Below are positions 431-32,422 of a stretch of DNA of 32,422 nt, in pieces. Source of the DNA: a virus; the IMG/VR virus record IMGVR_UViG_2925639251_000002. One strand, 5' to 3'. Within the stretch, counting starts at the first letter, position 1. Each line of letters starts with the position of its first letter. The notes under the pieces were generated by a model, which was given only the letters and a program-made list of their open reading frames with translations, was not told the origin of the DNA and searched no databases. Both the position numbers and the translations under genes were made by a program.

Positions 431-538
431 ATTCAAGGATACCCATGATAATTGAGTTTTCATTTGATTAATTATTAAAATTTTAGAAGAATAAGGTATA
501 ATGTGATTATTAAGTCCTGGAGTAAAAGGAGTTTTATT

Positions 539-1681
539 TTGGATAGCGTAAAATTTACCTTATTTGATGTAGATCGATTTTGGACAGGTTTTAATGATTA
601 CAAAAAGTTCAAAGTAGACAATAAAGAACATGATTTTTTTCAACTGTTTCGCAATGAAATTCCCGCGTCTATCGGAAAAGCCTTAAAAGAAAGACAATTC
701 AAAAATCTAGACCATATCAGCATAAAAGCCTCTACAGGTACAGGTAGGATTTCAGATTCATTTTGGATTGCTTTTCTTGATGATCGTTTAACAACTAAAG
801 GGAATAGAGTATCAACACAAGTAGGGATTTATATTGTTATTTTGTTTTCAGAAGACGGCCAAAACTTTTATTTGAGCATTGCCACAGGTACTGAAAAATT
901 CAGTCTATCAAAAATTAGAGAACAAGCTAAACAAGGTAGAGAATTTTTTGCAAAACAAATTCAATCGAATGATGAGTTATTAGGTTTTAATACAAATGAA
1001 TTTTATTTGGGTAAATCTGAGAGACCGAAAAAATATGCTGCCAGTGCTCTTATAAATAAGAGATATAATTTATTTACATTTGATGAAAATCAATTACTTA
1101 ATGATTTAGTTGCGTTAAATAATCTATTTTATGATTATGTTTATGAGTTCTATTTAACAGAAGTTGAAGCTCTAATTGGTGATTCAAAATCAACAAAAAA
1201 GACGCTGCCTAGAAGAGTGATTAACGTAGATAAATATAAACAACTCCGTCTAGAAAGAGAAATAGAAAATGAAATCACTGGAAAAACTGCAGAAGAGTTT
1301 GTCTATAATTATGAAAAGGAGTATTTAAAAACGTTAGGAAAAAGTGATTTGGCTCAGTTGGTTGACTGGGTATCTAGTAGAGAAGATGGACATGGTTATG
1401 ATATTAAATCATATTTTCCTGATGGCACAGAGAAGTTTATCGAGGTTAAAGGAACCAAATTCAAAAATAAGTATCGTACTTTTTATTTATCCGAACGAGA
1501 AAGACTTGTTGCTGAGGAAAAGGGTAACGAATATGTTTTAACATTAGTTGAGAACGTGGGTAATCCTAGGCTTATAAAAATTATAAAAGAGGTTAGGGAC
1601 CCGATTCATAAAATGTGTTTAAAGCCGCTAAATTATAGTTGTAAACTGAAACCAGAGGGATGTCAAGACAATGACGAATGA
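539..1681 (+). CDS. DUF3578 (McrB N-terminal/MrcB-like) domain fused to a DUF3883 PD-(D/E)xK nuclease; putative modification-dependent (type IV-like) restriction nuclease
   Basis: N-terminal motif STGTGRISDSFWIAFLD...GIYIVILFSEDGQNFYLSIATG; C-terminal GKTAEEFV...GHGYDIKS...FIEVKGT...FYLSERE. Start moved from 503 to TTG 539, which follows AGGAG at 527-531; TATAAT at 497-502. Confidence 0.8.
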   Translation: MDSVKFTLFDVDRFWTGFNDYKKFKVDNKEHDFFQLFRNEIPASIGKALKERQFKNLDHISIKASTGTGRISDSFWIAFLDDRLTTKGNRVSTQVGIYIVILFSEDGQNFYLSIATGTEKFSLSKIREQAKQGREFFAKQIQSNDELLGFNTNEFYLGKSERPKKYAASALINKRYNLFTFDENQLLNDLVALNNLFYDYVYEFYLTEVEALIGDSKSTKKTLPRRVINVDKYKQLRLEREIENEITGKTAEEFVYNYEKEYLKTLGKSDLAQLVDWVSSREDGHGYDIKSYFPDGTEKFIEVKGTKFKNKYRTFYLSERERLVAEEKGNEYVLTLVENVGNPRLIKIIKEVRDPIHKMCLKPLNYSCKLKPEGCQDNDE

Positions 1682-5634: not shown

Positions 5635-7041
5635 GTGGTGAGATTTATGGTTGTTACAGGAGACTATCAGTGTAATGTATGTAAAAGTATTACTCGTATA
5701 AAGGTTCAGCTAGGTTGGCTAGATAAATATCCAGTGAGAATCAGGTGTGGAAATTGCAAAATTTCTATATATGGAAATGTATATTTAGACCAAAAAAACG
5801 CAGGGTATTCTATTAAATTAAAAAATGTCAATCCTCTTGAGCCAGGTGAATTACCTGATTATATAGTGGAAGTTTCAGGTGAGCTTTTAACAGAAAAGAT
5901 ACGTTTATATACTGAATCGAAGAGTGACGTTTTCAGTCCCTTTTTTAAAAATGGTGTTTTTGTTATGGGTGAGAATATAGAACAGTTCAAGCGAAGCACC
6001 CTTTTATTTCTTTATAAAATAGATAATGAATGGCCCATAGTTAAACGGATTAATGAATTATGGTTCAATGATAGCCATGGATATTTGAGAAAAGAACTTC
6101 ATGATGTATTAGATAAAACACCGTTTCCGGCAGATAACGAATTAGAATTGTTAAGAGCTGTCCATTTTTTAAATACTCGGTTTATTGAAACTTTTGCGGG
6201 AGAATATTTTAAGAAAATAACGGATCATATATTTAACGAATTTAAAGATACAAACTCGGCACAATTGTTATTACTTGCACAACATTTTGAGAATACCTTA
6301 GGATCATACGAGAAAAAATTATTCAATATTCTTGATAAATTTGTCCAAAAATTCCATATGTTTATTCCTATTTTTGGATTAGATTTTTATTCAGACATAA
6401 AACATAGAGAGGAATCAATACAACAACTAGGATTGACAACGGTTGATTTTGAAGATATCAAGGATTTTTATACAGACACTTTTGAAGATATAAGTGATGT
6501 TTTAAATTTAGTCATTGCTTACAATAATTTAAAACATCGTGGAAATTTTAAAGAAATGAAAAGTAATGTAATTGATAGTATCCAAGAAATTAAGGATTAT
6601 CAAAAAATGCAAAAAAAAGGGAGGAAGCTAGAATTTATAAATGGTAAAGAAAGCTTTGATAAAATATTTGTCTCAAAAGTTGATAATCGATTACGAAATG
6701 CAATATCACATAGAAGTTACATCTATAATGTTGATACACAGAAGTTGAAATATTACCCTTCAGGTGATGTAAGTAGAGGTACTGCCGAAAGTTTATATTT
6801 AACAGAGTTTATTCAAGAATGTTTTAAATTAATGAGGTCTTGTATAGGATTAGCCGAAATTGTTTATCAAACCCGTAAGTTTAGTTATATAAATAAAGGT
6901 ATTGAGTCTAGACCTTTTAATCATTACTTTCCTTCATCTGAGAAAAAAAGAACTAATACTAAAATAAAAACCAATCAAAATAAAAAGAAAAACAAAAAGA
7001 AACTAGCAAAAAAAAACCGCAAAATAAATAGAAAAAAATAA
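5635..7041 (+). CDS. Zn-ribbon protein with a putative C-terminal HEPN RNase motif and Lys-rich tail; candidate defence effector
   Basis: CNVC...CGNC at the N-terminus; RLRNAISH (RxxxxH); KKKNKKKLAKKNRKINRKK tail; AT-rich. Start codon uncertain. Confidence 0.75.
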   Translation: MVRFMVVTGDYQCNVCKSITRIKVQLGWLDKYPVRIRCGNCKISIYGNVYLDQKNAGYSIKLKNVNPLEPGELPDYIVEVSGELLTEKIRLYTESKSDVFSPFFKNGVFVMGENIEQFKRSTLLFLYKIDNEWPIVKRINELWFNDSHGYLRKELHDVLDKTPFPADNELELLRAVHFLNTRFIETFAGEYFKKITDHIFNEFKDTNSAQLLLLAQHFENTLGSYEKKLFNILDKFVQKFHMFIPIFGLDFYSDIKHREESIQQLGLTTVDFEDIKDFYTDTFEDISDVLNLVIAYNNLKHRGNFKEMKSNVIDSIQEIKDYQKMQKKGRKLEFINGKESFDKIFVSKVDNRLRNAISHRSYIYNVDTQKLKYYPSGDVSRGTAESLYLTEFIQECFKLMRSCIGLAEIVYQTRKFSYINKGIESRPFNHYFPSSEKKRTNTKIKTNQNKKKNKKKLAKKNRKINRKK

Positions 7042-12226: not shown

Positions 12227-12253
12227 ATGTCCAAATTCAAGGAGGAAATACGA

Positions 12254-13549
12254 ATGACAGTTGCTATGACGAAAAAAGAACGTGAATTGAGACAAAAATT
12301 CACACAGAAAAAACAAGAGGCATCCAATCTTTTAAATGAAGGGAAGTCCGAAGAAGCCCGCAGCATGCTTGATGAAGCCAAGGCGCTACAAAAACAAATC
12401 GAGCTTATGTCAGAAGAGCGTGGCTTGGAACTGCCGGCATTGGGTGAAGAACGAAACTTTGTACCAGAATTCGAACGAAAGCCCGATGAAGAACCCGAAC
12501 AGCGCGATATTTTAACAGCTACAAAAGAGTACCGGGATGCTTGGTTTAAAGTGCTGACCGGACGTAGCCATGACCTTGGCGAAGAAGAAAGAAGCATGAT
12601 GCAGCGTGTCCTAAAAGAAAATCGCTCTTTGTCTGCTGGAAGTGATAAAGACGGCGGATATACTGTTCCGGACGATATTTCAAAAGAGATTTTAAAATCC
12701 ATCAAGGAATTAAACTCTGTTCGGAATCTGGTTCGCGTTGTGCCAAAAACTGCCCCATCAGGGAGTTATACAGTCCGAAAAGGTGTGGCTGGAAAACTCT
12801 ATAATACAGCCGAGAAAGAACAAATTAAAGAACTGAAAAACATGGAATTCGAACAAATCTGGTACAACGTCAAAAAGTTCGCCGGATTTATGCCTGTTTC
12901 TAGCGAGCTATTAAATGATTCATTTGTAAACTTTGTTCGTGAGATCGTGGACTGGCTCTCTGAATCTGCTGTAGTGACAGAAAATGATGAAGTCTTTTAT
13001 GGAAAAGGCGGCGAAACAAATGTTGAGGGGATTATCACTAGTGAAAAATATAAAACCCTTAAAGCGCCTTCTGTAATTACGATTAAATTTCTACGTAAGG
13101 TTAAAAACCAGATTAAACGCGGATATCGTAAAAATGCAAAGTGGGTTATGAATACTGAAGCGTTTGAAACCCTGGCAAACATTGAAGATAAAAACGGCAG
13201 AGGAATCTTAGCTCAAGATCCTAGAGACGAAGACAGCTTCCTTTTGTTCGGACGACCGGTTGAGGTTTATGACGAAATTGTAACTGACGACAAGACACAA
13301 AAGACTCATATTCTTTTCGGTGATTTTGAACGTGCTTATTTCATGTTTGACCGTGAAAAATTTGAAATTAAATCAACTGACGTGGGCGGAGACGCATTCC
13401 TCACTGACCAAACATATTTCCGAGGTATTGAGCGTTTCGACGGGAAAGTTGTTGATCCAGAAGCTGCCGTCATCGTTACTGACCTTGTTGTTGGAGAAGA
13501 GGCACAAGTGGAAACTCCATCGACTGAATCTGCGGACCTAGGTAAATAA
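12254..13549 (+). CDS. HK97-fold major capsid protein
   Basis: N-terminal delta domain, DGGYTVP, SSELLNDS, WVMN, LFGRPV, LFGDF, RFDGKV; AAGGAGG RBS favours ATG 12254. Confidence 0.95.
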   Translation: MTVAMTKKERELRQKFTQKKQEASNLLNEGKSEEARSMLDEAKALQKQIELMSEERGLELPALGEERNFVPEFERKPDEEPEQRDILTATKEYRDAWFKVLTGRSHDLGEEERSMMQRVLKENRSLSAGSDKDGGYTVPDDISKEILKSIKELNSVRNLVRVVPKTAPSGSYTVRKGVAGKLYNTAEKEQIKELKNMEFEQIWYNVKKFAGFMPVSSELLNDSFVNFVREIVDWLSESAVVTENDEVFYGKGGETNVEGIITSEKYKTLKAPSVITIKFLRKVKNQIKRGYRKNAKWVMNTEAFETLANIEDKNGRGILAQDPRDEDSFLLFGRPVEVYDEIVTDDKTQKTHILFGDFERAYFMFDREKFEIKSTDVGGDAFLTDQTYFRGIERFDGKVVDPEAAVIVTDLVVGEEAQVETPSTESADLGK

Positions 13550-13572
13550 AAAAACGAAAGGATTGATTTAAC

Positions 13573-14034
13573 ATGGCAGATTTTCTAAATGAAAGTAATG
13601 GAGCAAAAACATCAGCAAGAGACAATGGATCAGGGGAACCTATTACAGATGTCTCTATCGCGGACAACAGCGAGCAAAATCCTCTCTATGTTAAAGGCCT
13701 TCAAGGTGATCCCGGCCCTCAAGGTCCTAAGGGGGATACCGGTCCGCAGGGACCAAAGGGAGATAAAGGAGACACTGGTCCTCAAGGTCCAAAAGGAGAT
13801 GCTGGCCCACAAGGTGAGCCTGGTCCCCAAGGCCCAAAGGGTGACAAGGGTGATCCAGCTGTTATCGGCGAAAAATCTATTGTACATGAAATGCTGGGAG
13901 AAAAATCAGTCCGCAGCATTAACATTGGAACGGGCAGCGTTATGATGGACCACTTAAATAGTGAAGTGAAAAACGTATTAGATGGGCTTCAAAAACAAAT
14001 TGATGAGCTGAAACCTTCAACTTCTGCCGAATGA
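13573..14034 (+). CDS. Collagen-like virion (head fibre/decoration) protein
   Basis: 18 Gly-X-Y triplets and a C-terminal coiled coil; directly follows the capsid gene. Confidence 0.85.
13696..13857 (+). repeat. Collagen Gly-X-Y coding repeat (GPQGPKGD units)
   Basis: 18 consecutive triplets from GLQ to GDP. Confidence 0.95.
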
Positions 14035-14051
14035 AGGACAGGTGATGTCGA

Positions 14052-14354
14052 ATGACAGAAGAAGAAAAAGTTGAATTAGAGAAGGCAAAAAAGTTCCTCC
14101 GGGTTGATGGTGATCTGGAGGATGATTTGATTTTAGACTTTATTGCATCGGCAAAAGAATACATCACTTCTGCTACGGGGCTTACATTCCCGAATAAATC
14201 AGCCAGGGCAGCAATGTGTGTGAAAGCCTTCGTTACTCATTGGTATGAAAACAGAGAAATTGCTGGCACAACTTCGAACCTGGATGGCGTACTGACTAGT
14301 ATGATAAATCAACTGAAATATACATTGCCGGAGGCTCAGTCTGATGCTGAATGA
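14052..14354 (+). CDS. Head-tail connector (HK97 gp6-like)
   Basis: AKKFLRVD..EDDLI..I.SA.EYI, HWYENR. Confidence 0.92.
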   Translation: MTEEEKVELEKAKKFLRVDGDLEDDLILDFIASAKEYITSATGLTFPNKSARAAMCVKAFVTHWYENREIAGTTSNLDGVLTSMINQLKYTLPEAQSDAE

Positions 14355-14658
14355 TATGAGATACCGGATTCAATTTCAGAAAAAGAAGCCTACTGGCCGC
14401 CTGCCTGTGGATGGAAAGGACAGCTGGCAAACGGTAATTGAATGCTGGGCTAAAGCTGAAGGTTTAAAAGGCCGAGAATATTATGCTGCGGCTGCGATCC
14501 AGAAGGAAAAGACAGTGGAATTTACAATTCGACATCGCGAAGACATAGACGAACATATGCGAATCATCTTTCGTGAAAAAGCTTATGAAATCGAGTCGAT
14601 CTTGCCTAACTATTCTCGCCGGCATTTCATTACAATTAAAGCAAATGTGGTGAGCTGA
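14344..14658 (+). CDS. Head closure / head-tail adaptor
   Basis: MRYRIQFQ, CWAK...GREY, FTIRH, MRIIF...YEIESI. Confidence 0.9.
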   Translation: MLNDMRYRIQFQKKKPTGRLPVDGKDSWQTVIECWAKAEGLKGREYYAAAAIQKEKTVEFTIRHREDIDEHMRIIFREKAYEIESILPNYSRRHFITIKANVVS

Positions 14659-15056
14659 TGAATTTTGAGCTGGAATTAAAGGGTTTTAAAGAACTAGAAT
14701 CTACATTCGCAGACTTAGCCCGTAAGGACGAAAAAATCCATAAAGCAACTGTAAAAGCAGGCGGTGCTGTATTGGCGGAAGTAATCAATGATAATGCTCC
14801 GCGGTCAGCTATTGGGGGGAGGCACCCTCACATAGACGAGGACATTATTGTTGGAAACAGGATAAAGCGAGATGAAGACGGAGAAATATATGCGGTTGTC
14901 GGCCCAACAAAGGACACTAAATTCCGTGTTCACTTGCCGGAGTTTGGGACCATTCATCAGGCAGCAAATCCTTTTATTCGAAACAGTATGATTCAGGCGA
15001 ATGATAAGATGCTTGATGCTATGGAAAAGGTCATAAAGGCGGGGTATAAGCTATGA
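14658..15056 (+). CDS. HK97 gp10-family tail completion protein
   Basis: LKGFKEL, EFGTIHQAANPFIR. Confidence 0.9.
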   Translation: MNFELELKGFKELESTFADLARKDEKIHKATVKAGGAVLAEVINDNAPRSAIGGRHPHIDEDIIVGNRIKRDEDGEIYAVVGPTKDTKFRVHLPEFGTIHQAANPFIRNSMIQANDKMLDAMEKVIKAGYKL

Positions 15057-15445
15057 GTCTTTTAAACCTCATCGAAAGATCAATGCAATTAAAGGACAAG
15101 GTATTTGAAGCGCTGGAAACTAATCCGGCGCTTTTATCGTTGGTAGAGCCTGCAAATATTTATGAGCTGGCTGTGCCAGAAGGAGTAGAAAGTAATCCGC
15201 CTTATATTGTGGTTCAGGAGATAGACTACAGAACAACTAAATGGGCTGATGGGAAGCCGATACAAGACAGCGCTGTTTATCAGATTGATGTGTATCACAA
15301 TAGTTCATGTGATCCTATTTTTGTCCCTATTGTGGACGTAATGGGCAGGATGGACTTTCAGACAACTTTCCCCATCAATGAATTTTTACAAAAAGAACGT
15401 CTTATCCGAAAAGGATATCGGTTCGAAGCGAACATTTTACTATAA
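15053..15445 (+). CDS. Tail terminator/completion protein (DUF3168-like)
   Basis: PPYIV, YQIDVY; positioned before the major tail gene. Confidence 0.8.
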   Translation: MSLLNLIERSMQLKDKVFEALETNPALLSLVEPANIYELAVPEGVESNPPYIVVQEIDYRTTKWADGKPIQDSAVYQIDVYHNSSCDPIFVPIVDVMGRMDFQTTFPINEFLQKERLIRKGYRFEANILL

Positions 15446-15459
15446 TTGGAGGTTTTAAG

Positions 15460-16071
15460 ATGCCTGAATACAGTTCAGTGACAGGTTTGAAGAATGTGAA
15501 ATTTGCGCCTTTAAAAAAGGCGGGTAAATTTTTTGTTCCTACAGAAATTCTTGACTATGAATTTGCAATCAATATGAAAGTTGAAACAGAAACATCCACA
15601 GAAAAACAATATGCGGATGACAAACTTGTCGATCTTGCAGTTTCAACTGGTTCAACTAAATTAGACATTGAAATGCGGGATCTGCCAATGGAGATTCTCT
15701 CTAAATTACTTGGAATTGAACAAGATGAAAACGGATTGTACTTGTTTAAGAAAAATATCATTCCTCCTTGGGTTGCGATGACGTTTCAAGGACCTAAAGC
15801 AAACGGCAAGTCTCGTCATGTGGGCTTGGTAAAAGGGAGATTCTCTTTGCCGGGCGATGAATGGAAAACAAAACAAGATAAAACGGATTTCCAAACGATC
15901 AAACTTTCAGCCGAATTCGTAGATAGAGAGCAGGACGATGTGTTCAAAATCGTTGCGGATGAAGATGGAGAAAAATTCGATATAGATCACTTTTATAAGG
16001 CAGTTTTTGGGGACGCCTATCAAAATAAACAAGACACAGAAGAAAATGTAAGTGCTGATCTTGGGAAATAA
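15460..16071 (+). CDS. Major tail (tube) protein, phi13-like family
   Basis: GLKNVKFA, YADD, LLG, PPWVA, LVKGRF. Confidence 0.92.
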   Translation: MPEYSSVTGLKNVKFAPLKKAGKFFVPTEILDYEFAINMKVETETSTEKQYADDKLVDLAVSTGSTKLDIEMRDLPMEILSKLLGIEQDENGLYLFKKNIIPPWVAMTFQGPKANGKSRHVGLVKGRFSLPGDEWKTKQDKTDFQTIKLSAEFVDREQDDVFKIVADEDGEKFDIDHFYKAVFGDAYQNKQDTEENVSADLGK

Positions 16072-19700: not shown

Positions 19701-21202
19701 GGGAGACAGGGGAAGTGCTCGGGAAATGGGATACTTTTCTCGTTGATCTAGCAGGAGTAGTTAATAAAATTACCGGCGGGATCAATACTGTTCTTGAGTT
19801 CATGCACATTCCTACCATTCCTGAATGGAAGCCTAAAGGGTACAGCCGCAATTCTGAAATGCAGGTAGCGCCAGGCAGGGCCTATGCAAAAGGGACAGAC
19901 TTTCACCCAGGCGGAAGGGCGTTAGTCGGTGAAGAAGGATTTGAGCTTGCTCATACACCAGGCATCGGAACGTATGTGGTTGGAATGGGTGGCCCGCAGG
20001 TTTGGGATTTACCGCGTGGTACATCGGTTCTCCCACATAGTCAGTCAAAAGAAGTTATGGCAACCGGTCTTCCTGGTTATGCAGGCGGTGTCGGCAGCTT
20101 CTTCAAAGACGCCCTTAATGGTTCCAAGAAGCTTGTGAAAGGAGCCATTTCAGCAGGGAAGGGTGTTGTCAATAAAGCGAAAGATGTTGCATCGGGTGCT
20201 ATGGAAATGATCCTGAACGGTCCTGAGAAAATGATTAAGAACTTGTTTAAAGGCTTTATCCCTTTTAAATCAGGCAAAGGTGTGGACTCACTAGGAACTG
20301 GTATCCTCCAAACATTAAAAAATGGAGCTGGTCAGTTTTTAAAAAGCATTCTTCCGGATGCCGGGCTTTTCACAGCAGATGCTTATAAGGGAGCGACAGG
20401 GTCTGCCCAGGTTCAAAAATGGGTAGCGGAAGCTGTTGGCATTGCTGGTGTACCATTCTCATGGGTTCCTGGTTTGATCACCATTGCAATGAAGGAATCT
20501 GGTGGGAATCCCAATGCAATAAACCTTACTGACTCAAATGCAAGAGCTGGTCATCCTTCTCAGGGGTTGATGCAGACAATTCCAAGTACATTCGCATCAA
20601 ATGCGTTTCCTGGGCACAATAACATGTTGAATCCGGTAGATAACATTTTGGCTGCAATCAATTACATCAAAGGTCGCTATGGGGATATATCCAATCACCC
20701 AGGATTGAAATCAATGGCTCGCGGCGGCCCGTATGTGGGATACGCAAAAGGAGGAACTTCACCAGGGCGCGGCGGCTCTAAATGGGCAATTCTAAACGAA
20801 CGGGGCTTTGATGAAACCACGATTACAACAGACCCGACGTATCGGGAACGCAACATCGGTTTATGGGCGCGTGTAGGACGTGAGCTTGGTGTTCTTCCGT
20901 CACTTCAACAAGGGATGATTTCAAAGGCCCTTGTACTGCTTCAAAAAGCTTCAATGGCTAAAGCTGAGGCAGAGCCGCAAACCAATGTGAATGTTGACAT
21001 GAGCCGTGTGGTTGAGAATCAAGAGAAGCAAATCAGCATGATGAGCCAGCAGATAGATGCTCTACAGCAAAACATTCAGCTTTTGCAGCAGCTTGTTTTG
21101 AAAGACAATCACACGTATATAGACGGGACTAGACTGGATCAAACCAGTGCGGACCGATATAACAAAAAACGTTATAGAAACGGGGGTAAGCCTGCATGGT
21201 AA
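16715..21202 (+). CDS. Tail tape measure protein (TP901-family core) with a C-terminal SLT lytic transglycosylase domain
   Basis: FEKEMSRV.A, LAMAGY, AGTALRS; ESGGNPNA...GLMQ...NILAAINY; YAKGT motifs. Confidence 0.95.
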   Translation: MAQPIGNMVVKVGLDDTGFNRGIEGLKRQMRLANSEMKAAGSIYKNTGDQTKLLQSQMEGLNNKYKIQGRLVQEHRQRYDELARQKGKDNRETQIQARRLNDAIAVHQNLGRELQQVSKEYETLSGNTSRAASVFSVFKKDSQEVSKELKAVYNSATETGKALTAIGAVGALGIGATVKAAASFEKEMSRVAALANATDDQMAALTETARHLGAVTQYTDGQVAEGMQYLAMAGYKTNQIIGAMPGLLATAAAGQTDLGVTADIVSDILTEFHIKAEDTNRVADVMAYTFTNSNARLEEIGQTMKYAAPAAKTAGVSMEELAAATGIMANSGIKADMAGTALRSTLTRLAAPPKPAASAIEELGLKVTDSTGKMRPLADIIGQINEKTKDYTETEQIRIAKQLAGQHALSGFITLMHAGKDKLQDFTKELENSGGTAEKIADKQMDNLAGSFEYLKSATNNAVITLGNQFIPVIRATTDVITSAVTWFDSLPSSVASTIAITGAAVTVFSLLGGAFLLTLGSIPKMAAGWNMLRTAGAYLTGNVNRASTSLTVYSAEAIAAGTASRTAAAGMTVTSTAAAAASTRMDRFHQTSALATTRVGRLEQTTTRSARAMSGLSGASRVAGLGLSLFGGPVGTIAGLILSFAPELLKFGSGIIKAGVNAVKGAGGFMQLAKSGFGLFNILKKGAGIVGLLRGGLSLLGGPIGIAVTGVTLLADAGFKYYDNLKKRVLPATIDFGDKVSESTSKAINAYEDMNTKVGAKLNYYYLTNKKITKKIADNMSSEYEKMGQTILDGYQKSTDKSLKVLSDFYASNKEMSEKEKTETLQNIKDNNKDKHKEISGYTKRIKKIWENAAKDHRDITDGERKEIEQIIKKMNSHVESALTKSKEEQTIIAGKLKDNKTQLSAKEAAATVKNSKKAKDNVVKNAEKQYKEVVKNADLEYYVKGSITKKQHDDTVSSAKSQKDQVVKQAEKTHKGVVSEAKLQAAGHLEEVDWETGEVLGKWDTFLVDLAGVVNKITGGINTVLEFMHIPTIPEWKPKGYSRNSEMQVAPGRAYAKGTDFHPGGRALVGEEGFELAHTPGIGTYVVGMGGPQVWDLPRGTSVLPHSQSKEVMATGLPGYAGGVGSFFKDALNGSKKLVKGAISAGKGVVNKAKDVASGAMEMILNGPEKMIKNLFKGFIPFKSGKGVDSLGTGILQTLKNGAGQFLKSILPDAGLFTADAYKGATGSAQVQKWVAEAVGIAGVPFSWVPGLITIAMKESGGNPNAINLTDSNARAGHPSQGLMQTIPSTFASNAFPGHNNMLNPVDNILAAINYIKGRYGDISNHPGLKSMARGGPYVGYAKGGTSPGRGGSKWAILNERGFDETTITTDPTYRERNIGLWARVGRELGVLPSLQQGMISKALVLLQKASMAKAEAEPQTNVNVDMSRVVENQEKQISMMSQQIDALQQNIQLLQQLVLKDNHTYIDGTRLDQTSADRYNKKRYRNGGKPAW

Positions 21203-22004
21203 AACTGTTTATTGATTTCAATAACGGATTAGGGGAGCAAAGCCTTGACAGCTTACTCCCTCAATTTGAAGTATTAAGCTTTCTGCCGGAAGCTCCGAAT
21301 ATTAATCGGGAAACAATTACGATCCCTCGGCGGCACGGTTTGATTTTACCGCAGCATCCACGCGATGTGACTTACAGTGAAAGAAAAATAGATGTTGAGA
21401 TTTATTTGAATGCACTCAAGCATGAGAATTTTTATATGTATCGGCATCAGCTATATGCCCTATTGGTTAAGCCGTTTCCTTATTACATTTCTTCTGATAT
21501 GTGGCCGAATCGCCGTTTCCTTGTCACTTGTGACGGGAATTTCAGTATCCAAAAAGAGAAGGAGAAAACCTACAATGATTTTTCTGTGGAGTTCACCAAT
21601 ATTACAGGGATGGCAGAATCAACTTTTACAACAAAACTTTTGGAATGAACATCCCGCCTAATGATCAGTTGAACTATTCATTTAAGAATCAGAAACGTTT
21701 CTCTGTTTTTAATCCCGGCGATGTGCAGATAAATCCATTGGATCATGATTACAATGTCCTGTTAAATGCTGCAGGTAAAAATGTAAAGTTGATCAATCAT
21801 ACTAATGACGAAAAGCTTACGATTGAACAGGAACTAAAGAAAAGTCAGCAGGTTTCTTTTCTCAAACAATATACAATCATTAATAACACGCCGATTAAAA
21901 CATCTGGCCGGCTGCCGAGTCTTGAAATAGGATGGAATGAGTTTGAAGTTCAGAACACAAGTGACTTCACCATCCAATTCGATACTCGGCTTTATTATTT
22001 GTAA
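21196..22004 (+). pseudogene. Distal tail protein (Dit), split into two ORFs (21196-21648 and 21645-22004)
   Basis: Occupies the Dit position. The N-half has the YSERKIDV and GMAES motifs; the C-half has FNPGDVQINP and SLEIGWNEF. The second frame reads FGMNIP through the junction and has no RBS. Confidence 0.65.
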
Positions 22005-25687: not shown

Positions 25688-25996
25688 ATGGAATATGAAC
25701 AAATGTGGGCTTATCAATATGATGAAAACTATATTTATGATTGCCCGGTTGAAATTCAATACATCGAAGATGATGACGGAAACGTAAAGCGTGTTGTTCC
25801 GGAAAATGCAACCGAGATGTGTCCGGGTGACCTGGTGCAGGCCAAATGGACGGGAACAGAGTGGGTAGAAAGCGCATCGGCTGAATACATTGAGTCTCTT
25901 GAGACAGCTGGTTCAGATGATGAAAGCGACGGGGCAAAGGCGCTGAAAGCTGTTGCCGATATACTTGAAACAATGGTAAGGGGTGATGCGGGATGA
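25688..25996 (+). CDS. Tail fibre assembly chaperone-like protein
   Basis: YQYDENYIY, PENATE..P, KWTGTEWVE; ATG 25688 follows AAGGGGTG. Confidence 0.75.
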   Translation: MEYEQMWAYQYDENYIYDCPVEIQYIEDDDGNVKRVVPENATEMCPGDLVQAKWTGTEWVESASAEYIESLETAGSDDESDGAKALKAVADILETMVRGDAG

Positions 25997-26166
25997 GCAG
26001 CCCTTTTTATAATGCTATCAAGACGTGTTATCTATCAGGGTATTGGGATGGAAAGGAGGAGCTTCTTTCTATGGCTGTCGATCAAGGCAAGATAACAGAA
26101 GAGGAAATGAATGAGATCAAAAGGCTCCGACAGGCTGACAAAGGATCTCCTTCTATAGAAGAGTAA
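25993..26166 (+). CDS. XkdX-family small protein (57 aa; MSSPFYNAIKTCYLSGYW...AVDQGKITEEEMNEIK...)
   Basis: ATGA overlap; GKITxEExxEI motif. Below the ORF-track cut-off. Confidence 0.8.
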   Translation: MSSPFYNAIKTCYLSGYWDGKEELLSMAVDQGKITEEEMNEIKRLRQADKGSPSIEE

Positions 26167-27775: not shown

Positions 27776-28144
27776 TTGATTCAAATATACCCATACGACT
27801 CAGAAGGGTTTTTCCTTGGTCAGCCGGAGACTCTGAATCCTGATCCTGTGACGGGACAGTATAAAATCCCAGAAAACGCAACAAACATCCCTCCTGTGAA
27901 AGATGGACAAGGTATGTGGCGCCCTTGGTTTGACAGTGAAAAACAGGAGTGGTTTGAAAAAGCAGATCAAAATTATAAAGATAGCTTGAAGAGTCCGGCT
28001 GATCCTCCATCTGCTGTAGATCAACTAAAGGCGCAAAGTGCAGAAACAATGGTGCAGCTGGCCGAAGCTCAGAACTTAATAGAGTCCCAAGCGAAAATGA
28101 TTGCGGACTTGTTTTTGATGCTGGCTGAAGGAGGTGAAGTGTGA
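27776..28144 (+). CDS. Tail fibre assembly chaperone-like protein
   Basis: YPYDSEGFF, IPENATNIPP, PWFD...EWFE, C-terminal coiled coil; AAGGAGGGAG RBS with TTG start. Confidence 0.78.
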   Translation: MIQIYPYDSEGFFLGQPETLNPDPVTGQYKIPENATNIPPVKDGQGMWRPWFDSEKQEWFEKADQNYKDSLKSPADPPSAVDQLKAQSAETMVQLAEAQNLIESQAKMIADLFLMLAEGGEV

Positions 28145-28317
28145 TGGATTGGTTTAAAAATATCAAAACTATTTATGGATGGGGGAGACAGTATTACACA
28201 AACGCTGATGTCGCCCGTTTTGTTGTCTTGAAGAGAATCACAGAAGACCAATATAAACAAATCACCGGCCTGACCTATCCAGCTACAGAGCCGGTTGTCA
28301 TAGATTTAGGAAGTTAG
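28144..28317 (+). CDS. XkdX-family small protein (57 aa; MDWFKNIKTIYGWG...FVVLKRITEDQYKQITGLTYPATEPVVIDLGS)
   Basis: TGATG overlap, GGAGGTG RBS, ITxxQYKxITG motif. Below the ORF-track cut-off. Confidence 0.85.
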   Translation: MDWFKNIKTIYGWGRQYYTNADVARFVVLKRITEDQYKQITGLTYPATEPVVIDLGS

Positions 28318-30268: not shown

Positions 30269-30568
30269 CTATATTGTTTTAAGGTGTTCTTTAATTTGTT
30301 CAGTGACTTGCTTAAGCCATTCTAATGGAGTTATATCATCTTCAGGAAAGTATATACCATCAGCTGCTTCTTCTATAAATTCATTCTTATCTGCTTCAGA
30401 ATAATTACTATTTACAAACTCAGTTAGTGCTATTAAATCTCTTTCTTTTAGCTTTTGTGATGCTTCATTTAGATATTCATTAAGAGCATCTTCAGGAGAT
30501 TCTATATCTTGGTGGAAATGTCCGCCGAGAAATCTAAATACAGGATCAGAAACTTTAATTTCAATCAT
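30269..30568 (-). CDS. CdiI-type immunity protein for the RNase toxin
   Basis: FLGGHFHQD motif; acidic, 99 aa; directly downstream of the toxin. Confidence 0.85.
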   Translation of the reverse strand: MIEIKVSDPVFRFLGGHFHQDIESPEDALNEYLNEASQKLKERDLIALTEFVNSNYSEADKNEFIEEAADGIYFPEDDITPLEWLKQVTEQIKEHLKTI

Positions 30569-30574
30569 TATATA

Positions 30575-32422
30575 TCACCTCGTTGGGTAGCCTGTTAATA
30601 TAAAGCTACCATCTTCATTTTTCTTTAATACTATTCTAGCATTAGTCATATCTTTAACTTCATTTGAACCTTTACGAACTCCTCTACCTATAACTTCAGT
30701 TCCTCTATAAGGTAACGGTAATGGATCGCCTATATCACTATTTAACCACTCTTCAATTTCCTTTTTATGTTTAGTCAATGTTTCATTAGCGACTCTTTCT
30801 GCAGTTGGCCTATCAGTGAAACTAGAAGAGGCACGTATTTTCTTGTTTATCTGTAGCCTCTTTAATAACTCTTCATCAGTCTTCCCAACGTGTCTTTCAA
30901 TAAGGTGCCCGCCTTTTGCTTCATGAGCAGCTAACCCTCCACCAGGTGCGAGAGGGGTACTATCACCTTGTTTGACATTACCTATACCTATGTTGTTAGA
31001 AGTTTCAGATTTTCTGAGAACACTCTCTTTTTTATCTTCCGCAATACTTTTTAGCAGCGGAGTATTTTTTACATTAATGGTATTCTCAGCATTTTGAAGG
31101 ATCCCTTCTAATGCAGGAGTATACCGGTTAACAGGAGATTTGACAAACTGTTTTACAGATTTTCCGCCTTTTTTAATTGTGCCACCAGCTGCTTTCCCAA
31201 CTTTAGCAAGGTCCTTCGAGCCTGTTGAGACAGAGGACTTTCCACCTTTCAATAACAGAAGACTTCCGCCCAAATAAGTAACATAGTGCAGCCGCGTGTA
31301 TGCATCCCCGTGAATCATTTTTGTATCCCAATTATCCTTCAATGTGTCAACCATACTTTGAAAGGCAGCTTGATAGTCGTATTCCAAAACGGTATCCAGC
31401 ACTTTTTGAGGATCCTTGTTCAAGTTATCAATCGTCCAACCGATATTCCATCCGAATTGAATGGCTCCTTCACCGGTATCCTTGGCAAGATCGTATATAC
31501 CAACAATCGCACCTTTGGCGCCATCACCTATGATTTGCAACACTTCTTTTCCGTTATCCATGAAAGCTTTACGCTGTTCAAGAAATGAAACATATTCAAG
31601 CTGTTCAGGGGTAAGATTCTCATAGCCGACCTTCTTGGCAATTTTTAAGTATTCATCCGGATCCGTCACTCCGTCAGCTAGCTTCTTCTTTAAATCTTTG
31701 ATTTCTCGTTCTTTCGCTTCATCTTTCTTGAACTTCAAATAAGCTTCAGTTTGTTTTTCAATATCGCCTTGTTTCTTATGTATGTCACTTTCACGGTACG
31801 CCTTGGCGTTGTAGTGAATGGGCATAGCGTTTTTGCCTTTGCCTGTGGATTCCTCAAGCTTTTGGAAGTCTTTCTTGATGAATTGCTCATTTGGCTCTGA
31901 CTGGGCATATTCAGAAACAAGTGCTTCGTCCACGCTGTCTATTTTATTGACGGTTTTTTTGCGTTGGTTCTCCGCATCGGCGAGTTCGTCTTTAAAGGTT
32001 GCTGTGGAGAACAAATCAAGCGGAAGAATATCGTCGATATCATGTAAGATATCTTTCATGGCTTTCTTCTGTTCAGACATAATGGACTTTGATTTTGTGT
32101 AGGCGTTAGCCAGCTCGTGTTCTAAGAAGGATTCTTCTATGTATGCATCAGATAAGCTGGCGTCCTCTAGAGTGCCTGAAATGCTTGTCAAGAAAGCAAT
32201 TTTCATATCAAGTAAGTCAATCCAATTGTCAGCTACACCTGCGTGGTCTTGATAAAATGCTTTAATGTTGTCGGCGCCTTTGCCGGAAAACTCACTGTCA
32301 TCTAAATCAGCTACAGCTTTGAAGGCTTTCTTTAGATTGACCATCTGACTTCTTAATTCTTTGTATTCCTTTGCACGTTTATCTGCTTCTGAAAGCAGTG
32401 ATTTGGCTTCAAATACTTTCAT
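30575..32422 (-). CDS. LXG-domain T7SS polymorphic toxin (YeeF/YqcG/YobL-like) with a C-terminal bacterial RNase A-like (CdiA-CT) domain
   Basis: [10 protein letters not shown]...[17 protein letters not shown]-terminus; [20 protein letters not shown]...SSF...ILTGYP toxin. Confidence 0.9.

Follow-up and report, generated by a model that had tools for sequence, protein, structure and literature searches.

Through a frameshift or a fusion, phages A2 and PSA display immunoglobulin (Ig) or fibronectin type III (FN3) domains on both head and tail, and glycosylation of mycobacteriophage virions was reportedly described by Freeman in 2023. As far as the available text of the relevant reports goes, decoration proteins attach, each differently, to folded surfaces of the capsid at its symmetry axes, and gp12 of the Bacillus siphophage SPP1 is a collagen-like trimer at the hexon centres of one capsid, with a proposed role in adhesion (PMC7602432). 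In the linker proteins of phages Milano (LP1 and LP2) and 7-7-1, a short N-terminal strand, reused in two proteins, anchors an Ig-type cargo to the capsid; the Milano linkers are described as disulfide-linked to a folded minor capsid protein (PMC10491603, PMC12796354). SPP1 gp17.1* is presented as a frameshift product that displays an accessory domain on the tail tube (PMC8718954). Here we analyse a stretch of 32,422 nucleotides (IMG/VR record IMGVR_UViG_2925639251_000002; hereafter the window) in which the major capsid protein and the tail tube protein end in the same six residues, SADLGK. This shared end (the tag) is probably a portable docking peptide bound by the N-terminal segment (the anchor) of the protein encoded after the capsid gene, so that one cargo would be displayed on both head and tail; binding is suggested by the co-occurrence of tag and anchor in related genomes.

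The window protein resembles SPP1 gp12 in its collagen-like stalk and differs from it in the proposed use of a portable linear tag and in the tagging of the tail, neither of which is mentioned in the available text on gp12 (PMC7602432). SPP1 gp12 was absent from the PDB sequence matches of the anchor profile, no direct sequence comparison having been made. The anchor-plus-cargo plan is that of the Milano and 7-7-1 linkers; unlike in Milano, the reused element lies here on the receptor side, on unrelated folds, and has no cysteines. As in gp17.1*-type display, an accessory domain would be presented from the C-terminus of major virion proteins, but its cargo is part of the same chain through recoding, whereas here it is a separate gene and there is no conserved recoding frame. 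Mycobacteriophage glycosylation likewise targets capsid and tail tube; unlike the present system, it needs phage glycosyltransferases, none of which was found in the window, and the tag has no invariant acceptor. The pairs phi105 gp8/gp13 and YouA-like protein/tail tube of SPbeta and SPR are members of the same tag/anchor system. They are annotated as tail fibre or hypothetical proteins, and no function for them was found in the literature. Nor was any description found of a linear tag that has moved from one virion protein to another, unrelated one, the search having covered neither the motif string itself nor subscription papers and supplements. By analogy, the anchor-bearing protein would work like a decoration or head-fibre protein.

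A C-terminal tag on unrelated virion proteins

Pfam annotation of the open reading frames (ORFs), of which 38 were considered, identifies the window as the late region of a phi105-like (Spizizenvirus) prophage. The closest phage record is that of the Spizizenvirus yong1 (97% identity in the tail tube). The genes relevant to the tag are:

12227..13549, + strand: HK97-type major capsid protein with an acidic linker and the tag SADLGK at 13529-13546 (PF05065; the TIGR01554 match stops at residue 418)
13573..14034, + strand: predicted decoration protein with N-terminal anchor, collagen-like (PF01391; phrog_10972; anchor alignments; phi105 match)
15460..16071, + strand: phi13-family tail tube protein with a linker and the tag SADLGK at 16051-16068 (PF04630; the TIGR01603 match stops at residue 185)
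28141..28317, + strand: XkdX-family small protein with a C-terminal extension ending VIDLGS (PF09693 at residues 5-46; TIGR01669)

The initial annotation had drawn attention to the identical ends of capsid and tail tube, and the ORF ends bear it out: the capsid terminates in ...EEAQVETPSTESADLGK (tct gcg gac cta ggt aaa taa, 13529-13549) and the tail tube in ...KQDTEENVSADLGK (agt gct gat ctt ggg aaa taa, 16051-16071), each after a linker. Codon comparison agrees that five of the six shared codons differ synonymously. The probability that any pair among the 38 window proteins has identical last six residues is ~3e-5. The tag was described there on capsid and tail tube; both do carry it, and its range is broader, including a third window protein, XkdX (28141-28317), which ends PVVIDLGS and is encoded after a BppU-domain tail-tip gene and that gene's neighbour. 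A second XkdX-like paralogue (25993-26166) is without tag.

A survey of IMG/VR loci retrieved via capsid or tube yielded the variants SVDVGK, AVDAGK, SVDLGE, STDLGA, ATDLGK, ANDLGD, AIGLGK and SVDIGKGA. The tag recurs on capsids 28-32% identical to that of the window and on tubes equally distant (28-32%), and its carriers comprise HK97 capsids, three tail tube families (phi13-type, SPR/SPbeta and SPP1-like), an SPbeta head protein and XkdX proteins. Residue and codon statistics were taken from 66 distinct 18-nt tag segments, in which the Gly was required by the search pattern. Asp is present in 62 of them and replaced by Gly or Glu in the other four (e.g. EAIGLGK, TVELGK); L, V, I or A comes next; at position -2, 43 segments have S, 16 have A and 7 have another residue; and Lys follows the Gly in 41. 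There is thus no invariant Ser/Thr acceptor in the tag, and the Ser/Thr residues common in the linkers are unaligned. Beyond the Gly lie 1, 3, 4 or 6 residues, leaving no fixed distance to the carboxylate. What is conserved is [SA]-x-D-[LVIA]-G followed by 1-6 free residues, on a linker predicted to be disordered. Gly is encoded by each of its four codons and Asp by each of its two. This variability in residue, codon and position indicates a protein motif in which Lys and the terminal carboxylate are dispensable. The tag is thus kept at the protein level on unrelated folds, as had been surmised from the window; it is found near the C-terminus, also as surmised, but need not be the last element. 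Strict C-terminal recognition, by a PDZ-type domain or a protease, was rejected on account of the variable residues after Gly, and a Lys-based chemistry because so many segments have no Lys.

The tags lie on flexible extensions, given that the family models end at residue 418 of the capsid and residue 185 of the tube and that tube residues 190-203 have an AlphaFold2 predicted local distance difference test (pLDDT) score <50. The tube of locus L183 is near-identical to the SPR tube of the DSR2 structures, whose C-terminus is SSDLGGTTE; residues 242-264 of the SPR tube are reported, in the text available, as disordered or unresolved in recombinant tubes (PMC11850899). Recognition of the tag by DSR2 was rejected, the same text giving D1 as the captured part (PMC11850899).

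The anchor module and its cargos

The collagen-like protein encoded after the capsid gene had been put forward as the tag's nearest candidate partner. The right gene was chosen, but what tracks the tag is the N-terminal ~28 residues of its product and not the collagen. In alignments this anchor has the consensus FLNxxxGxxTSAxDxGxGxPITDV, with an invariant Thr, a near-invariant Thr-Ser and no invariant Lys, Asn or Cys. In the window protein it spans residues ~4-30 (13582-13662) and is followed by 18 Gly-X-Y triplets (residues ~43-96) and short repeats; a coiled coil is likely. The gene for SPP1 gp12 also adjoins the capsid gene.

The anchor is fused to swappable cargos: collagen in the window and unrelated globular domains in loci L027, L183, L192 and L283. 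At least four cargo types occur in genomic context, and many more among 45 anchor-profile matches (32 retrieved, at least one being a repeat false positive). Collagen triplets (PF01391) are present in one type only. Collagen was accordingly rejected as the binding partner, since it is replaced by unrelated domains in other phages. The constant N-terminus and the exchanged cargos can be read directly from the sequences, and binding would occur through the anchor end.

The anchor is present in phi105 (gp8), A9Y and SPbeta-type phages, and the window protein shares anchor homology with phi105 gp8 and with the product of the SPbeta-type gene behind the tail tube gene (YouA-like). For the anchor relative P0033 the nearest Atlas cluster is named YouA, a lead to XepA being weaker; an Atlas search with residues 1-44 gave leads that were all <0.9. 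In phi105, gp13 ends VVDVGK, and the capsid is untagged. Phage phi105 also encodes gp7, which has the same cargo end as gp8 behind a different N-terminus, and a relative of the gp7 N-terminus carries a head-fibre Pfam domain; the two genes would fit as two routes for putting one cargo on the head. A single-chain model of anchor residues 1-60 shows short beta-strands with a predicted template modelling (pTM) score of 0.33. It had no Foldseek match in the PDB, nor did sequence searches of the PDB yield a meaningful match for the anchor profile or for XkdX.

At the family level, 23 of 91 genomes have the anchor, every one of them in a single genus; at wider ranks it was found in 5 of 401 genomes of the order, 3 of 401 of the class (one a weak, spurious-looking match) and 1 of 401 of the phylum. 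Like decoration-type genes, the anchor gene is a small accessory gene in the head/tail module, absent from sister phages (L227, L231, L236 and L239). The YouA-like gene of SPbetaL5 (L182:8990-9606) and that of L183 have an apparent start ~35 codons upstream of the annotated one, probably an ATT codon behind AAGGAGG; the annotation appears to cut off the anchor.

Co-occurrence of tag and anchor gene

The main set consisted of 227 loci with full-length capsid and phi13-type tube genes, collapsed to 90 distinct pairs; loci with missing or cut genes were dropped. In 68 pairs the anchor gene is present and both proteins are tagged; in 11 the anchor gene is missing and so are the tags; in the remaining 11 the anchor gene occurs together with a phi105 gp7-like head-fibre gene, and the tag is found on the tail only. 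As background, 89 of 1871 ORF ends match the tag pattern. The initial annotation had suggested examining homologues for co-occurrence of the tag on both proteins with the partner gene: the motif proved both conserved and co-occurring. The exact six-residue match on which that annotation relied is seen in just 6 of the 68 doubly tagged pairs; it is [SA]-x-D-[LVIA]-G that is conserved. A cleaner set was chosen by PF04630 alone in 91 genomes, giving 34 matches, from which 31 regions were retrieved, three further G033 copies being left out. Complete tubes were tagged in 16 of 16 cases among 17 anchor-positive loci (the tube of L246 is cut) versus 0 of 14 among anchor-negative ones.

Tag and anchor gene are gained and lost together. 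Tagged phages have anchor-less sisters in L227 and L231, in which the capsid ends are PNPGSGENK and PNPGPGENK and the tail tube tags have decayed to NVNPGK and NVNLGK, respectively. Since the tail gene is 2 kb away, the two losses cannot be ascribed to one co-deletion. The same loss or decay without anchor is seen in another lineage (L236, L239). Trees built on 35 and 37 of the 90 rows place tagged tubes in three clades and tagged capsids in three clades, with L227, L236 and L239 nested within tagged capsid clades (the capsid tree being a quick one).

The association extends to other folds. In SPbeta-type phages the anchor gene lies behind the tail tube gene, and the tube is tagged in 26 of 26 distinct sequences with anchor versus 0 of 3 without. 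A YonC-like head-module protein of these phages carries the tag on a 22-residue extension in 6 of its 15 distinct sequences. In the SPP1-like locus L283, located via the anchor pattern alone, a PF06199 tube ends TIDLGEAE and the anchor gene is next. Homologues of the window XkdX protein are tagged in 14 of 16 retrieved (18 found). When XkdX was examined by genome (96 loci, 15 without ORF; two duplicate loci and spurious ORFs were taken out by visual inspection), the tag was present in 15 of 24 cases in anchor-positive prophages versus 0 of 5 in anchor-negative ones. Five further tagged XkdX proteins are from anchor-positive genomes, their link to the anchor prophage not being established.

Near-identical tail tubes were found with two head modules (L021 and L028 versus L167, L174 and L242), one having a tagged capsid without gp7, the other an untagged capsid and a gp7-like fibre. 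This points to head-module exchange.

Proposed docking and its alternatives

From the distribution described above, the anchor would bind [SA]-x-D-[LVIA]-G directly, the tag probably adding a beta-strand to a beta-rich anchor. Hundreds of capsid and tube subunits would then present sockets for one cargo protein, which would decorate capsid, tail tube and possibly a tail-tip part and would thus be located on the virion. The collagen-type cargo would be trimeric through its collagen; with a rise of 0.29 nm per residue in collagen, its stalk would measure ~15 nm. Its role may be adhesion or dispersal, as stated for other decoration proteins in the text available (PMC7602432). As to its spread, a cassette of tag, stop codon, ribosome-binding site and anchor gene may insert behind a structural gene, namely the capsid gene here and the tail tube gene in SPbeta-type and SPP1-like phages, after which ~20 nt of tag could be copied onto further genes. 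We incline, somewhat less firmly than to docking itself, to the view that these Bacillus phages possess a natural plug-and-socket display, in which an appendable five-residue tag recruits a ~28-residue anchor with exchangeable cargos and one gene re-coats head, tail and tail tip, possibly covalently. If true, a linear tag moved across unrelated folds and phage families (phi105-like, SPbeta-like, SPP1-like) would represent a different decoration logic, the whole surface coat being swappable through one gene. A function would be assigned to unannotated genes of model phages (phi105 gp8 and the YouA-like gene of SPbeta/SPR), XkdX would be suggested as a virion or assembly part, and a minimal peptide pair would be available for phage display in Bacillus subtilis.

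Several observations weigh against docking for surface display. The association is correlative, and the tag pattern was composed after inspection of anchor-positive loci. The anchor-negative sisters come from some two to three lineages, and the untagged capsids of gp7 type form a single clade; because of this kinship the number of independent events is small. The tag is optional on some carriers, since 9 of 15 distinct SPbeta head proteins are untagged despite the anchor, as are 9 of 24 XkdX proteins in anchor-positive phages. Conversely, 2 of 28 XkdX proteins are tagged in genomes without an anchor match, both on 1.2 kb contigs of a 110-contig assembly (G049), and the anchor-less SPbeta-type tube of L211 ends SHLG. 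It is not obvious how surface display would account for a tag on XkdX, a chaperone-like protein. Distant anchor-like genes (L316, L317, L318 and L319) adjoin Dit, holin or an untagged large protein, with no tag visible; these loci are short or degenerate, tube and capsid not being identified in them. Finally, no virion proteomics or structure for these proteins was found in the literature, though proteomics of SPbeta or phi105 may exist.

The anchor protein could instead act inside the cell, as an adaptor or chaperone of assembly that brings tagged capsid, tube and XkdX together without stably decorating the virion. The co-occurrence data would fit equally, and the presence of the tag on XkdX, a small protein encoded beside tail-fibre genes, as well as the proximity of anchor-like genes to Dit or holin in distant Bacillales, would be in keeping with such a role. 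But the cargos, collagen stalks in one type and globular domains in others, are of kinds usual in surface fibres, the gp8 cargo end recurs in phi105 gp7 behind an N-terminus with a head-fibre relative, and sister phages without the anchor gene have intact structural modules; an adaptor role therefore seems unlikely. Improbable to a similar degree, if slightly more so, is a covalent joining of tag and anchor, whether by an isopeptide bond at the Asp or by cleavage after Gly and transpeptidation. The near-constant Asp of the tag and the Thr and Thr-Ser of the anchor could be so interpreted, and the variable residues past Gly would suit a cut at that point. Against it, Gly or Glu takes the place of the tag Asp in 4 of the 66 segments, the anchor offers no invariant Lys, Asn or Cys, and no ligase gene was seen. 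Isopeptide tag/catcher pairs carry a reactive Asp/Asn or Lys that is invariant in tag and partner alike; in the present tags Asp stands in 62 and Lys in 41 of the 66 segments.

That a phage or host enzyme glycosylates or otherwise modifies the tag, as happens in mycobacteriophages, would be suggested by the Ser/Thr-rich linkers and by the glycosyltransferases of cluster O mycobacteriophages, which, in the text available, act on capsid and tail tube (PMC11600133). Yet no glycosyltransferase was found among the 38 window ORFs, some of which have no family, the prophage extending past the window, and none is annotated in yong1 1-27629; the tag tracks a non-enzymatic module, for which a host enzyme would not account. 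Modification is thus highly improbable. The initial annotation had left docking and modification side by side, with covalent ligation or modification as an alternative. Co-occurrence, cargo swapping and correlated loss lend docking strong support, while the enzymatic options are weakened by the inconstancy of Lys and of Ser at -2 and by the lack of an identified modifying enzyme in the window. A nucleotide-level origin of the shared ends, whether they serve recoding by frameshift or readthrough or were left over neutrally from DNA copying, can be largely dismissed. Some capsid and tail tags are close at the DNA level, and a tail tube extension by frameshifting is known from the available text on SPP1 gp17.1* (PMC8718954). 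However, among 68 junctions between a tagged gene and the downstream gene, 21 have the two genes in one frame but separated by stops, 40 have them in different frames with a closing stop, and 7 are open, five of these by just 4 nt. In the window every frame past both tag stops closes quickly, and synonymous codons are used freely. Without a conserved open shifted frame, extension by frameshifting or readthrough was rejected.

Other features of the window were recorded. The Dit gene is split into two ORFs of 150 and 119 aa (21196-22004); in yong1 it is a single 279-aa gene, and the second ORF matches residues 161-279 of its product at 98%. The split reflects either a defective prophage or a sequencing error. 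Pfam also points to cargo genes of the prophage: after the lysis genes (30269-32422, - strand) come an LXG interbacterial toxin, which has an RNase A-like domain, and a CdiI-type immunity protein, and an MrcB_N/NOV_C protein, possibly defence-related, is encoded at 503-1681 (+ strand). A 468-aa ORF (5635-7041) matched no Pfam or NCBIfam family.

A different kind of shared end was noticed in anchor-less Bacillaceae prophages. In L232 (G078:C311) and L234 (G060:C4:151500-164500) both capsid and tail tube end in Thr runs, as does the connector of L234 and L238; the L238 capsid and tube end PAETTPTV and PDATPTV, respectively. In L232 and L234 an ORF of 357-364 aa (L234:9501-10595) lies behind the tail tube gene and combines phrog_4417, of no assigned function, with an Arc-like end. 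The shared Thr runs of L232 and L234 are a different system, which could be one of virion glycosylation.

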